The notes under the pieces: model-generated
Seen by the model: the letters and a program-made list of their open reading frames with translations, nothing else
What the model was told of the DNA's origin: nothing
Databases searched by the model: none
Shown: piece by piece, positions 1-5,697 of the stretch
Position numbering within the stretch: position 1 is the stretch's first letter
How the letters are laid out: every line of letters begins with the position of its first letter
Translations under genes and position numbers: made by a program
Source: a virus
Lineage: Duplodnaviria; Heunggongvirae; Uroviricota; Caudoviricetes
DNA length: 5,862 nucleotides
IMG/VR virus record: IMGVR_UViG_2671180254_000003
Strand: one strand, 5' to 3'

Positions 1-117
1 TAGCTCCTTCTGATGCCATTCTATTTCAGGAAGGAGTGTCCGTTAAACTCAGGCTACCTCAGGTTATTCGCTTCTGGGCATGGGCGGATCAACAAATGAT
101 AGACGGTAATGCAGATT

Positions 118-136
118 GTAACGCTCGCGGCGTTAC
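118..136. repeat. Palindrome GTAACGC-tcgcg-GCGTTAC inside the replication gene; candidate initiator-binding site (ori element)
   Basis: Perfect 7-bp inverted half-sites around a 5-nt spacer. The same half-site recurs at 327-345 and 361-367. Confidence 0.3.
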
Positions 137-326
137 AAAAAGTGCAATAGATCGCATCACTTTTATGTCTGGTTTTGCTGATGCGTTAATTCAGGTTGGA
201 TGGCTGGTCGAAAATGACGGAGGGCTTTCTCTACCTAACTTTGAACGTCATAACGGAAAAAGCTCTAAAAAAAACGGGCGGTTACAAACGAGCGAGTAAC
301 AAAAATACGCGAACTGAAACGAAAAG

Positions 327-345
327 GTAACGCTGCCAGCGTTAC
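327..345. repeat. Palindrome GTAACGCTG-c-CAGCGTTAC; candidate ori/iteron element within the replication gene
   Basis: Perfect 9-bp inverted repeat with 1-nt spacer. Followed by another GCGTTAC half-site (361-367), a (GAGGAA)x3 repeat (371-388) and two GATC sites (389-392, 401-404). Preceded by an A-rich stretch (300-325). Confidence 0.35.
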
Positions 346-744
346 ACAAACGGATCAAAAAGCGTTACCAGAGGAAGAGGAAGAGGAAGATCTAAATACT
401 GATCTCCCCCTCGCCAAAAACGAGCGTCTAAAAAATTCGAGCCGGAGGCTATTGAGCTGCCCGATTGGTTGCCGGAAACACTCTGGCATGAGTGGGTCCG
501 GTTCAGACAGGCATTGCGAAAACCGATTCGAACGGAGCAGGGCGCTAACGGGGCGATACGGGAACTGGAAAAATTCCGTCAGCAGGGTTTTACACCTGAG
601 CAGGTGATTCGACACAGCATCGCCAATGAATACCAGGGCCTGTTCGCGCCGAAAGGTGTTCGGCCTGAGACGTTGCTCCGACAGGTTAACACCGTCTCGT
701 TGCCGGACAGTGCGATCCCGCCAGGCTTCAGGGGGTAACGGACC

Positions 745-1491
745 ATGAAAAATATTGCGACAGGCGGCGTTCTGGAACGCATCCGCCGACTGACCCCGCC
801 ACATGTAACCGCCCCATTCAGAACGGTAGCGGAGTGGCGCGAGTGGCAACTTGCTGAAGGCCAGAAACGTAGCGAGGAGATCAACCGCCTGAATCGCCAG
901 TTGCGGGTGGAAAAAATTCTGAATCGCTCAGGCATCCAGCCGTTGCACCGTAAATGCTCGTTTGCGAATTACCAGGTGCAGAACGACGGCCAGCGATACG
1001 CGTTAAGCCAGGCGAAATCCATCGCCGATGAACTGATGACCGGGTGTACAAATTTTGCGTTCAGCGGAAAACCTGGTACCGGGAAGAATCACTTAGCGGC
1101 AGCTATCGGGAATCGCCTGCTGAAAGACGGTCAGACAGTGATTGTGGTTACCGTGGCTGATGTTATGAGCGCCCTGCACGCCAGCTATGACGACGGGCAG
1201 TCAGGCGAAAAATTTTTGCGGGAGCTGTGCGAAGTGGATCTGCTGGTTCTTGATGAAATTGGCATTCAGCGCGAGACGAAAAACGAGCAGGTGGTGCTGC
1301 ACCAGATTGTTGATCGCCGGACAGCGTCGATGCGCAGCGTGGGGATGCTGACAAACCTGAACTATGAGGTGATGAAAACATTGCTCGGCGAGCGGGTGAT
1401 GGATCGCATGGTCATGAACGGCGGGCGCTGGGTGAATTTTAACTGGGAGAGCTGGCGTCCGAATGTTAGCCATTCGAGGGTTGTTAAGTAG
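745..1491 (+). CDS. DnaC-like replicative helicase loader (prophage YdaV-like AAA+ ATPase)
   Basis: 248-aa ORF with Walker A motif GKPGTGKNH, Walker B-like LLVLDEIG and DnaC-like overall architecture. ATG 745 lies 6 nt after the upstream stop with a G-rich RBS (AGGGGG 730-735). Confidence 0.9.
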   Translation: MKNIATGGVLERIRRLTPPHVTAPFRTVAEWREWQLAEGQKRSEEINRLNRQLRVEKILNRSGIQPLHRKCSFANYQVQNDGQRYALSQAKSIADELMTGCTNFAFSGKPGTGKNHLAAAIGNRLLKDGQTVIVVTVADVMSALHASYDDGQSGEKFLRELCEVDLLVLDEIGIQRETKNEQVVLHQIVDRRTASMRSVGMLTNLNYEVMKTLLGERVMDRMVMNGGRWVNFNWESWRPNVSHSRVVK

Positions 1492-1505
1492 TTTCAGGAG
1501 GATTT

Positions 1506-1928
1506 ATGGCGAAACCTTTTACTCCCGAACAGCGGGAAGAACTGAAGACGCGAATTGTGGAACTCGTGCATCAGGACGGTCGGGTCACGATTCGGCAGTT
1601 GTCAGATGAAACAGGTATCAGTCGTGCGTCTGTCGGTCGCTTATGCATAGAACTGGTCGCAAGTGGTGATGTATATAATTCTGGCTACGGCTTATTCCCG
1701 TCTGAACAGGCTCGCAAGGACTGGCAAAGCGCCCGCAAAAAACTCTCGAGAGTAAAGGTGAGGAAACCGGTTGTTGTTGATCCGGACCTTATCTGGTCAT
1801 TACCTGACGGAGAAATACGCCGCTACGACAGGCGCCTGAATATAATCTGTCGCGAGTGCCGGAAGAGCGAAGCTATGCAGCGTGTACTGGCTTTCTATCA
1901 GGGTAATTTTCAGGAGGCGATACTGTGA
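1506..1928 (+). CDS. Winged-helix/HTH DNA-binding protein (prophage, DUF977-like; family uncertain)
   Basis: 140-aa ORF with strong SD CAGGAGG (1495-1501) 4 nt before ATG 1506. HTH-like segment VTIRQLSDETGISRASVGRLCIELVASGDV. Stop TGA 1926-1928. Confidence 0.75.
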   Translation: MAKPFTPEQREELKTRIVELVHQDGRVTIRQLSDETGISRASVGRLCIELVASGDVYNSGYGLFPSEQARKDWQSARKKLSRVKVRKPVVVDPDLIWSLPDGEIRRYDRRLNIICRECRKSEAMQRVLAFYQGNFQEAIL

Positions 1929-1985
1929 ATGAAATTAGCTATCAGGCTTCAATTACCGCTGGCATTCGCATCAAAGGAGAGGAGC

Positions 1986-2342
1986 ATGGAAATAAAACCA
2001 GAAGATGAGTTAAGCAATATCGTTTTATTTCCGGTAAAAGAGGATGACCCTCGTAATCAGGTTAATTTTCTTTATGAGCCATCGGAAAGACCATATTGCC
2101 ATCACGCCTCTGTACGGGTTGACGAAAAAGAGCGTCAGGTCCGCTGTAAAATCTGCGGTGCGGTTGTGGAGCCGTTTGACTGGATGCTCTCTGTGGCAAA
2201 AAGAGAAACCAGACTGGCAGATGATGTAAGGCTATTGCGCCAGGAGGAACAGGAAAGGCGGAGAAATATAGAAAAGCTGATACAGATTGAGCGTAACGCG
2301 AAAGCGCGGATACGCAGGGCGACAAAATCCAGAACTGAATAA
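1986..2342 (+). CDS. Zinc-ribbon protein with basic coiled-coil-like C-terminus (hypothetical phage protein)
   Basis: ATG 1986 preceded by AGGAG (1975-1979, 6-nt spacing). Contains CHH...x13...CKIC putative Zn-binding motif. An alternative in-frame ATG at 1929 (137-aa version) abuts the upstream TGA and has SD AGGAGG at 1912-1917 with a long 11-nt spacer. Confidence 0.6.
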   Translation: MEIKPEDELSNIVLFPVKEDDPRNQVNFLYEPSERPYCHHASVRVDEKERQVRCKICGAVVEPFDWMLSVAKRETRLADDVRLLRQEEQERRRNIEKLIQIERNAKARIRRATKSRTE

Positions 2343-2489
2343 TTAAATTTAGCACTGTTAAAAATTTAATCCTTAACCGGAGGGATTTCTGCACCCTCAA
2401 ATCATCAGGAGACCACCCGAAAGGGCGGGGAGCAGTCACACATCTGTTTCCGATAGCCCCGTTCTAATGCTACACTCTTTGATATTTTT

Positions 2490-3176
2490 ATGACCCCAAT
2501 AAACATATTTATGACAGTTGCTGATTTCAAACGGCCCAAATTGGAGCTCCCAAACGGGGCAAACAAACTACTACTGCACTCTTGCTGTGCTCCATGTTCC
2601 GGTGAGGTGATGGAGGCGCTTCAGGCCTCGGGAATCGACTACACCATCTTTTTCTACAACCCGAACATTCATCCTCAGAAAGAGTATTTAATTCGTAAGG
2701 ATGAGAATATTCGCTTTGCTGAACAACACGGCGTGCCGTTTATTGATGCTGATTACGACACAGACAACTGGTTTGAACGAGCCAAAGGAATGGAATGGGA
2801 GCCCGAACGAGGGATCCGTTGCACCATGTGTTTTGACATGCGTTTTGAGCGGACAGCGCTGTACGCCGCTGAAAATGGTTTCAGTGTGATCAGCAGTTCA
2901 CTGGGCATTTCACGCTGGAAAAATATGCAGCAGGTTAACGACTGTGGGCGGCGAGCCGTCGCGCATTATCCGGGCATGGTGTACTGGGATTATAACTGGC
3001 GCAAGCAGGGCGGCTCGTCCCGTATGATTGAAATCAGCAAGCGCGAAAAATTCTATCAGCAGGAATATTGTGGCTGTGTGTATTCTCTGCGCGATACCAA
3101 TCTACACCGCAAATCTCAGGGACGCCCTCTTATCAAAATTGGTCAACTCCACTACGGTAAAGAAGAGAAGGAGTGA
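2490..3176 (+). CDS. queH: QueH-like epoxyqueuosine reductase family protein (DUF208, Fe-S enzyme)
   Basis: 228-aa ORF with the DUF208/QueH hallmark motifs as recalled from memory: [45 protein letters not shown]. Start could be ATG 2490 or 2511; neither has a clear SD. Confidence 0.8.
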
Positions 3177-3197
3177 TTTTATGGGGCACCTTTCTGA

Positions 3198-3227
3198 TTG
3201 ATTTCATATTGGCGAGGTAAGTAGAAT
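3198..3227 (+). promoter_or_regulatory. Putative sigma70 promoter for hok-type transcript copy 1 (-35 TTGATT, 18-nt spacer, -10 TAGAAT)
   Basis: TTGATT 3198-3203 and TAGAAT 3222-3227 place a transcription start near 3234, the start of the tac-like sequence CTGCGGGTGCTTGAGG. Confidence 0.35.
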
Positions 3228-3321
3228 GACTGCGGGTGCTTGAGGCTATCTGCTTCAGGCATGAACACCAAAAGGCAGATAGAGAAAAGCCCCAGTTAAC
3301 ATTACGCGTCCGGCAAGACGC
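3211..3321 (+). promoter_or_regulatory. hok-type mRNA 5' leader, copy 1 (tac-like element plus conserved stem-loop); downstream body lost in assembly gap
   Basis: About 90 nt closely similar to 5355..5460 (CTGCGGGTGCTTGAGGCT...AGAGAAAAGCCCCAGTTAACATTACGCGTCC.GCAAGACGC). Contains stem CTATCTGC/GCAGATAG (3246-3253 / 3275-3282). Runs directly into the N run. Confidence 0.6.
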
Positions 3322-3574
3322 NNNNNNNNNNNNNNNNNNNNNNNNNNNNNNNNNNNNNNNNNNNNNNNNNNNNNNNNNNNNNNNNNNNNNNNNNNNNNNN
3401 NNNNNNNNNNNNNNNNNNNNNNNNNNNNNNNNNNNNNNNNNNNNNNNNNNNNNNNNNNNNNNNNNNNNNNNNNNNNNNNNNNNNNNNNNNNNNNNNNNNN
3501 NNNNNNNNNNNNNNNNNNNNNNNNNNNNNNNNNNNNNNNNNNNNNNNNNNNNNNNNNNNNNNNNNNNNNNNNNN
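3322..3574. other. Assembly gap (253 N)
   Basis: Uninterrupted run of N. ORFs 3236..3577 and 3255..3701 in the track are artefacts of translating N. Confidence 0.99.
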
Positions 3575-3694
3575 TAATTTTTGTCTGGATAATCGGAAAA
3601 ATAATTGAGCCAGTTATTGAATTGTATAACGACGTGGTATGGGCGTCATTCAACACACTGCACAATAAAATTAATCCGTATAAGGAAAGCTGAT

Positions 3695-4060
3695 ATGGCA
3701 CTGACGAAAAAACAACGTGCAGAACTGCGCATGAAGTTCGGTGGTCGCTGCGCTTATTGCGGCTGCGAACTTGGCGAAAAGTGGCATGCAGACCATGTAA
3801 AACCGGTCATTCGTTTTGATGGAAATATGCTTCACCAGGAACGTGACGATATATCCAACATGGTACCAGCATGCCACCCATGCAATCTGCACAAGCATTG
3901 CAGTAGCCTGGAAGATTATCGACGAATTATCAGTGATGGTCGTCGTGAATTCCTTGCGTCCGGGAAAGGCAAAGCGCTGGTTCGTATGGGATTGGTTGAA
4001 ATGAAATCTGACCCGGTTGTGTTCTGGTTTGAAAAATATCAAGAAGGGGCTACGGCATGA
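3695..4060 (+). CDS. HNH endonuclease
   Basis: 121-aa ORF from ATG 3695 with SD AAGGA (3682-3686). HNH motifs CAYCGCEL, WHADHVKPV, VPACHPCNLHK. The track's longer version starts at TTG 3605 with no RBS. Confidence 0.85.
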   Translation: MALTKKQRAELRMKFGGRCAYCGCELGEKWHADHVKPVIRFDGNMLHQERDDISNMVPACHPCNLHKHCSSLEDYRRIISDGRREFLASGKGKALVRMGLVEMKSDPVVFWFEKYQEGATA

Positions 4061-5354: not shown

Positions 5355-5484
5355 TGTCGGTAAGATTGCTGCGGGTGCTTGAGGCTGTCTGCCTCGGGTA
5401 TGTCACTGTAAGGCAGACAGAGAAAAGCCCCAGTTAACATTACGCGTCCTGCAAGACGCTTAACATTAATCTGAGGCCCAATCT
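5355..5484 (+). promoter_or_regulatory. hok-type mRNA 5' leader, copy 2 (putative -10 TAAGAT at 5361-5366, tac-like element 5369-5386, stem-loop 5385-5420, mok upstream region)
   Basis: tac-like CTGCGGGTGCTTGAGG is complementary to the 3' fbi-like sequence at 5749-5764. Stem CTGTCTGCC/GGCAGACAG (5385-5393 / 5412-5420). Leads into the mok/hok reading frame. Confidence 0.7.
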
Positions 5485-5697
5485 ATGTCTCACAAATGTA
5501 GGTTAGCCTCTTACGTGCCGAAAGGCAAGGAGAAGCAGGCTATGAAGCAGCAAAAGGCGATGTTAATCGCCCTGATCGTCATCTGTTTAACCGTCATTGT
5601 GACGGCACTGGTAACGAGGAAAGACCTCTGCGAGGTACGAATCCGAATCGGCCAGACGGAGGTCGCTGTTTTCGTAGACTACGAATCTAGAGAGTAA
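5485..5697 (+). CDS. mok: Mok-like regulatory reading frame (70 aa), in frame with and containing hok
   Basis: ATG 5485 opens the only frame open across the hok start. Length matches chromosomal Mok-type frames (recalled from MokC, which is an N-terminally extended HokC). Whether it is translated is inferred. Confidence 0.5.
   Translation: MSHKCRLASYVPKGKEKQAMKQQKAMLIALIVICLTVIVTALVTRKDLCEVRIRIGQTEVAVFVDYESRE
5542..5697 (+). CDS. hok: Hok/Gef-family type I toxin (HokD/RelF-like small membrane protein, 51 aa)
   Basis: MKQQKAMLIALIVICLTVIVTALVTRKDLCEVRIRIGQTEVAVFVDYESRE shows the Hok family signature (TM helix, LTRK.LCE.R...EVA.F..YES). SD AAGGAG sits 8 nt upstream of ATG 5542. Confidence 0.9.
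   Translation: MKQQKAMLIALIVICLTVIVTALVTRKDLCEVRIRIGQTEVAVFVDYESRE

Follow-up and report, generated by a model that had tools for sequence, protein, structure and literature searches.

A QueH-type epoxyqueuosine reductase gene as probable cargo of lambdoid prophages in Escherichia and Shigella

The window analysed in this study, a stretch of 5,862 nucleotides from a tailed-phage record of IMG/VR (IMGVR_UViG_2671180254_000003), corresponds to the early-right arm of a lambdoid prophage of the Rac/Qin-like type, and it contains a gene, queH, whose predicted product is a full-length QueH (DUF208) enzyme. In the reading favoured here, to which a probability of about 0.62 is given, this gene would be a captured and working queH that is transcribed on its own as prophage cargo and that provides lysogens with a vitamin B12-free step from epoxyqueuosine (oQ) to queuosine (Q) in tRNA. 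This reading is drawn from sequence comparison and structure prediction.

The encoded QueH enzyme

The ORF at positions 2490-3176 of the plus strand comprises 228 codons and opens at an ATG located upstream of, and in frame with, a second ATG at 2511. The first-pass annotation had described it as a 228-aa protein with the DUF208/QueH motif set, and the motifs quoted there are all present; in 228-aa numbering the set consists of HSCCAPC (30-36), FFYNPNIHP (54-62), RCTMC (110-114) and YCGC (193-196). A Pfam search matched the ORF to PF02677 (QueH) with an E-value of 1.9e-65 and a score of 220.6 bits, covering profile positions 1-174 of 175, and since the cut-off of this profile is 23.5 bits, a chance match is excluded. 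The annotation had made its assignment depend on a significant DUF208 match, and the one obtained is both significant and full-length. None of the NCBIfam models matched the queH ORF. RefSeq already labels the gene as an epoxyqueuosine reductase QueH.

The true start codon is probably the ATG at 2511, corresponding to Met8 of the longer ORF and giving a protein of 221 aa, because the RefSeq CDS of the identical gene begins there and because three related loci (L004, L097 and L098) have an in-frame stop between the position equivalent to 2490 and Met8. Alignments with homologs from other genera begin at residues 8-10. The 228-codon ORF reported earlier therefore exists, while the conserved start is more likely the downstream one.

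Six cysteines of the protein (C32, C33, C111, C114, C194 and C196) align with C9, C10, C87, C90, C169 and C171 of Thermotoga maritima QueH, and are invariant in the 16 diverse and 32 close sequences aligned. According to the 2021 report of the T. maritima QueH structure, these residues reportedly bind the [4Fe-4S] cluster and a neighbouring metal, and the mutant entry C9S fits this assignment. The column of T. maritima Asp13 is occupied by Cys36, a putative seventh ligand, and this position is Cys in 15 of the 15 aligned sequences from outside Thermotoga, among them copies from Acinetobacter and from gut metagenomes as well as S. aureus-like ones. Therefore, CCAPC is the usual form among the aligned homologs, from which the solved structure deviates. 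The Cys/Asp metal ligands expected from the first reading of the sequence are thus found in part: the six cysteines are present, and the Asp position is a Cys, making an all-Cys set. Structures of C9S and D13N mutants of QueH exist in the PDB.

A sequence search of the PDB with the queH protein retrieved T. maritima QueH and its mutants only (7lc5 with E=5e-22 over residues 27-203). An AlphaFold2 model built with 32 close homologs as input reached a mean pLDDT of 71.8 and a pTM of 0.73, which is moderate confidence, and low around the ligand loops. The top five Foldseek matches of this model are all QueH entries, namely 7lc7, 7lc5, 9d86 (C9S), 9dco (D13N) and 9deu (queuosine complex), with E-values of about 1e-9 and TM-scores of 0.72 normalised to the target; the sulfur transferases LarE and TtuA rank below them, with E-values of 5e-5 or weaker. 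On the basis of the model and these matches, the predicted fold is that of QueH, with an adenine-nucleotide alpha-hydrolase-like core, the more distant matches being Fe-S enzymes or sulfur transferases of the alpha-hydrolase fold. The profile and structure searches proposed in the first-pass annotation thus agree, with a significant PF02677 match and with T. maritima QueH as the best match by both sequence and fold. The encoded QueH is very likely to be enzymatically active.

Prophage setting, distribution and chromosomal relatives

The genes of the window are arranged in the order of pieces of an O-like replication initiator, YdaV, a DUF977/Ren-like gene, a small Zn-ribbon ORF, queH and a hok/sok locus; after a masked run of N follow an HNH ORF, two phage ORFs without known function and a second hok/sok locus (Table 1). 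Positions 61-3321 match the chromosome of E. coli FDAARGOS_944 (locus L001) at 99.5% identity, and the two copies of queH are identical. In L001 this region sits within a complete annotated prophage, extending from integrase to tail genes, and hokD is found at the equivalent place. The location in an accessory region of a lambdoid prophage, as originally proposed, is confirmed by L001 and by further Escherichia and Shigella loci. No other queuosine or deazaguanine genes were found among the ORFs of the window by Pfam and NCBIfam searches, and none is annotated across the L001 prophage; the earlier remark that queH has no such genes nearby holds for the window and for the whole L001 prophage.

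Table 1. Features of the queH region and its surroundings, in window coordinates
Feature	Position	Strand	Remarks
DnaC-like YdaV	745-1491	+	NF009043, E=8e-154
DUF977/Ren-like gene	1506-1928	+	PF06163, E=1.1e-33; phrog_142
queH cassette (promoter element, queH, start of hok/sok)	2440..3321	+	94.4% identity to common allele; flanks diverge
Weak -35-like TTCCGA	2448-2453	+	17 nt upstream
Predicted extended -10 element TGCTACACT	2468-2476	+	~35 nt upstream of ATG 2511
queH coding sequence	2511..3176	+	221 aa from conserved start; PF02677 match; CDS identical to RefSeq WP_012421537.1 'epoxyqueuosine reductase QueH'
CCAPC motif, codons for Cys32-Cys33-Ala-Pro-Cys36	2583..2597	+	aligned to T. maritima C9, C10, D13
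RCxxC motif, codons for Arg110-Cys111-Thr-Met-Cys114	2817..2831	+	invariant Cys pair = T. maritima C87/C90
YCGC motif, codons for Tyr193-Cys194-Gly-Cys196	3066..3077	+	invariant Cys pair = T. maritima C169/C171
First hok/sok locus	3234..3293	+	Rfam RF01794 sok, 53.9 bits, model positions 1-58; truncated by N run
Masked N run, 253 N	3322-3574		covers hokD toxin gene and leader by alignment to L001
Second hok/sok locus, complete	sok 5373-5547; Hok ORF 5485-5697		sok 118 bits; PF01848, E=1.7e-21

The masked stretch lies outside queH and its control region, because the alignment with L001 places hokD there. Each of the two hok/sok loci of the window shows about 90% identity to the one hokD locus found in L001. 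They flank an insert of ~2 kb that contains the HNH ORF, a DUF551 ORF and an ORF of 221 aa, which looks as though this module had been inserted via recombination between hok/sok copies. The HNH endonuclease ORF (3605-4060, PF01844) covers only the C-terminal part of phrog_2118 (positions 158-275 of 301) and starts directly after the N run, so that a truncation or partial masking of this ORF is conceivable; it also has weak PtuB-like matches in PADLOC (E=3e-8). The O-like replication initiator (36-738), an intact 262-aa gene in L001, is split over three frames in the window by a 2-bp insertion (AA) at 273-274 and a 10-bp deletion at 408, reflecting either a replication-defective prophage or indel errors in the assembly. 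Bases 1-60 of the window differ from L001 at the corresponding position. Three of the queH-carrying prophages, L001 (23423-23733), L005 (12501-12753) and L004 (11322-11475), have genes for Ile, Arg, Thr and Gly tRNAs upstream of their lysis genes, none of them of the Q-modified type (Asp, Asn, His, Tyr).

Among 5426 complete E. coli genomes, queH is present in 995 (~18%, about one in six), nearly always as a single chromosomal copy, and its carriers include O157:H7, O104:H4 and avian pathogenic strains. The queG gene is found in all 5426, in agreement with the earlier statement that this species normally relies on the B12-dependent QueG. A neighbourhood survey, as the first-pass annotation had suggested, covered 87 loci from Escherichia, Shigella and viral contigs, and the prophage slot recurs in them. 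The gene upstream of queH is DUF977 in 65 of the 87 loci and the Zn-ribbon ORF that follows DUF977 in another 16 (together 81), and the downstream neighbour is hok in 69 and a Dcm+NgoMIV restriction-modification pair in 14. In the Escherichia and Shigella loci examined, queH always occupies the same slot, with the replication genes on one side and the late-gene antiterminator on the other. Some loci are without an adjacent hok, such as those where queH is found beside Dcm+NgoMIV or TehB; in E. coli O157:H7 (Z1831; 7922-9932 of locus L003) a DNA cytosine methyltransferase and an NgoMIV-family endonuclease replace hokD. The occurrence of the restriction-modification pair in 14 of 87 loci suggests that the site downstream of queH is a hotspot for cargo and defence genes.

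The two main alleles are homologous from 2440 up to the N run. Immunity and integration modules vary among the queH loci, and therefore the cassette is common to several prophage backbones. The isolated temperate phage HannyBb carries queH in the same arrangement, where it is annotated as hypothetical, and IMG/VR contains 188 matching stretches. Another 24 QueH matches in the phage collection were rejected as cases of phage carriage, being unverified fecal fragments or mislabelled bacterial DNA. An example is the 328-kb record CAKLQH020000001.1 (L176, 'Acinetobacter phage MD-2021a'), which looks like mislabelled chromosomal DNA, with soxR, tadA, cynX and a LysR regulator around a QueH gene annotated as 'putative prophage protein'.

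Outside Escherichia, the closest proteins belong to Enterobacter, Kluyvera and Scandinavium, with 87-92% identity. In this group queH lies in unrelated, non-phage surroundings on the chromosome, its neighbours being an aldehyde dehydrogenase gene, the acetoin operon, a gene for Hcp and a DHDPS-family gene; one locus of the group has an integrase fragment nearby. The next relatives, with 79-86% identity, are likewise found in non-phage chromosomal neighbourhoods, in Erwinia (purL-queH-glrK-glrR-glnB), Providencia (near tmcA and purC) and Photorhabdus (beside benE). Since homologs 79-92% identical to the prophage protein sit in such chromosomal neighbourhoods, the phage has recently captured a housekeeping-type QueH. 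The first-pass annotation had asked whether homologs are universally part of the host core; this is not the case, as the Escherichia copies are prophage-borne and those of Erwinia, Providencia, Photorhabdus and Enterobacter lie in non-phage chromosomal neighbourhoods.

Promoter-like element and proposed role in lysogens

The promoter candidate was derived solely from a cross-genus comparison of upstream regions, where the sole conserved island in the alignment has the consensus TGCTACA(C/A)T, read here as an extended -10 element (TGnTAnnnT). In the window this element, TGCTACACT, occurs once, compared with 0.03 occurrences expected by chance. It precedes queH at a constant distance in each of the 80 viral-contig loci, in the E. 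coli loci and in HannyBb, and is also present upstream of the chromosomal queH of Enterobacter, Kluyvera, Scandinavium and Erwinia, with the remaining upstream DNA being unalignable. The -10 hexamer TACACT is non-consensus and the -35 is poor; a standard two-hexamer scan found no plus-strand promoter upstream of queH, and a terminator scan found no terminator around it. An Rfam search of the window revealed the two sok loci only, and no RNA element upstream of queH. From the conservation of the element, queH is predicted to have brought its own promoter and to be transcribable in a lysogen, and its status as self-transcribed cargo is rather likely. Because queH points in the same direction as the early-right operon, it would additionally be read once the prophage is induced, and expression confined to induced cells is equally conceivable.

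In the proposed scheme, queH together with its small promoter would have moved from an Enterobacterales chromosome into the lambdoid prophages of Escherichia and Shigella, where it would travel in a cargo ('moron') cassette that is mostly linked to hok/sok. In E. coli the pathway is complete as far as oQ, including Tgt and QueA, and QueH is a non-orthologous replacement of QueG (PMC5372724). The latter enzyme is cobalamin-dependent (PMC4646009) and is one of the four cobamide-dependent enzymes of E. coli (PMC11841063). QueH, as a [4Fe-4S]-plus-second-metal enzyme, would reduce the epoxide of oQ34 to Q without cobalamin, its substrates being position 34 of tRNA-Asp, tRNA-Asn, tRNA-His and tRNA-Tyr. 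E. coli is devoid of de novo B12 synthesis. In a lysogen QueH would act beside the host QueG, and the last step of Q formation could proceed when cobalamin is scarce; since QueG is cobalamin-dependent and QueH replaces it, the oQ-to-Q step would become independent of imported B12. The first-pass annotation had offered an effect on the Q34 status of host tRNA among several functions, and it is this route that the evidence favours.

Because queG is universal in E. coli, QueH would be redundant whenever B12 is available. The loss of queG has little known phenotype, and growth of a delta-metE strain supplied with cobamides was unchanged by it (PMC11841063). A benefit for carriers under B12 limitation is accordingly put forward as a tentative proposal, at somewhat less than even odds. 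A more far-reaching version is doubtful: prophage queH would be expressed in the lysogen, Q34 would become cobalamin-independent and a measurable advantage would arise where B12 is contested, for example in the gut, so that lysogenic conversion would extend to the tRNA epitranscriptome. If true, queH would stand as the first documented case of an enzyme carried by a phage and devoted to the maturation of queuosine in the tRNA of its host. With an active queH, lysogens and non-lysogens would differ in the Q/oQ state of four tRNAs under cobamide limitation, which offers a simple, testable case of a prophage altering host translation chemistry. About one in six sequenced strains, some of them from major pathogen lineages, would carry a phage-delivered, B12-free alternative to the sole core oQ reductase.

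The pattern of sequence variation bears on whether queH has any role at all. All 88 Escherichia-type copies of queH are intact and encode only seven protein variants, and the window allele differs from the common allele by 19-22 synonymous and 2-5 non-synonymous changes (dN/dS 0.025-0.054); the prophage copies, by these measures, are under strong purifying selection. Compared with the 90% consensus of 31 chromosomal orthologs, the protein has two departures only, I142V and Y214H, both conservative. Taken together, the low dN/dS, the intact copies and the two conservative departures speak against a passenger in decay as well as against a repurposed enzyme, and the repurposed fold considered in the first-pass annotation is disfavoured for a protein so near to the consensus. 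A queH without a role could be maintained by its linkage to the hok/sok addiction module and by lambdoid mosaic recombination, as hok/sok is the predominant downstream neighbour and the enzyme is redundant with the universal queG. However, such dN/dS values and the absence of broken copies are not expected of a neutral passenger, and queH persists without an adjacent hok beside Dcm+NgoMIV or TehB, which makes this explanation quite improbable. A lytic role fares somewhat better but is still unlikely. Here queH would be transcribed mainly from the early-right promoter after induction, converting the pool of oQ-tRNA to Q-tRNA for faster or more accurate phage translation, and this would fit its co-orientation with the replication genes, directly downstream of which it lies with no terminator-like site between, as well as its presence in the free-living temperate phage HannyBb. 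Against it, the fraction NAU/(NAU+NAC) is 0.54 in 38 prophage genes (0.54 in early and 0.54 in late genes) versus 0.64 in the seven flanking host genes, which are a small sample, and with no NAU enrichment the codon-biased translation during induction suggested at first reading finds no support. In addition, the promoter-like element of the chromosomal ancestors has been retained, the initiator is broken by two indels in the window while queH is identical to that of L001, and a useful re-modification of existing tRNAs within one lytic cycle is doubtful.

A different substrate, either 7-deazaguanine in DNA or another epoxide or small molecule, would place queH in DNA modification, anti-restriction or defence. 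Phages do use queuosine-pathway genes for DNA modification (PMC6884629), and the slot also houses restriction-modification genes and a Ren-like exclusion protein. However, no homolog of DpdA, Tgt, QueC, QueD, QueE or FolE is present in the window or in the L001 prophage, and the absence of DpdA, QueC, QueD, QueE and FolE bears out the earlier conclusion that queH is not part of a complete phage 7-deazaguanine DNA modification pathway here. A comparison of QueH with PADLOC-DB gave no family at E<=0.001, and its designation as a defence gene was rejected for want of such a match. The protein retains 79-92% identity to chromosomal QueH with the invariant family columns intact, and we know of no epoxide-bearing deazaguanine in DNA. 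With no partner genes and such close chromosomal orthologs, the 7-deazaguanine-type modification offered as a function by the first-pass annotation is disfavoured, and the whole class of alternative substrates is highly improbable. The preferred reading remains that of a cargo QueH acting on the tRNA of the lysogen.

Relation to known QueH, QueG and phage cargo systems

The prophage protein shares with T. maritima QueH (7LC5, 7LC7, 9DEU) the predicted fold, the six cysteines and the YNPNI, RCxxC and YCGC motifs, and the expected reaction is the same. It differs from this enzyme in having Cys instead of the Asp13 ligand and in a basic C-terminal tail of ~25 residues, which belongs to the gammaproteobacterial QueH clade and is absent from T. 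maritima; the context is also different, chromosomal in T. maritima and prophage here. The chromosomal QueH proteins of Enterobacterales (Enterobacter, Kluyvera, Erwinia, Serratia, Providencia, Proteus and Photorhabdus) are much closer, with 79-92% identity and the same length, and the closest group among them shares the upstream TGCTACA(C/A)T element. Their genes are found among housekeeping and metabolic genes and no phage gene occurs within 6 kb of them, whereas the Escherichia and Shigella copies are inside lambdoid prophages. QueG (YjeS) performs the same reaction on the same substrate as QueH, and both enzymes are iron-dependent (PMC5372724, PMC9508795), but QueG has an unrelated fold, requires cobalamin (PMC4646009) and is a core gene (5426/5426), while queH is accessory (995/5426).

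[quoted passage not shown] These sets place preQ0-type bases into DNA, in contrast to the present case, where an enzyme of the last tRNA step occurs alone and without partners. A survey of viral queuosine-pathway genes reported homologs of QueA, QueG and QueH to be absent from the viruses analysed (PMC6884629), and the prophage queH qualifies this statement. A full-text literature search found no paper discussing a prophage-borne QueH. In PHROGs, the family phrog_3217 is labelled 'unknown function', and its profile of 188 positions takes up the 221-aa protein from residue 34 onwards. The CCAPC motif is therefore missing from the profile, a gap that probably arose when the member ORFs were called from an internal Met.

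Variable presence and a fixed slot between conserved phage modules, the pattern by which a moron is recognised, are both found for queH. With lambdoid morons and lysogenic-conversion genes it also has hok/sok and restriction-modification neighbours in common, and its predicted promoter may be a further resemblance. No flanking terminator was detected at queH, and in place of a toxin, an exclusion protein or a protein that modifies the surface, the cargo here is an enzyme of tRNA modification. The enzyme family, its reaction and the gene name are already known, and what had been undescribed is the systematic carriage by lambdoid prophages and its consequence for B12 dependence. The prophage queH is thus a modest and largely undescribed example of a phage cargo gene, and otherwise an ordinary, correctly named member of its family.
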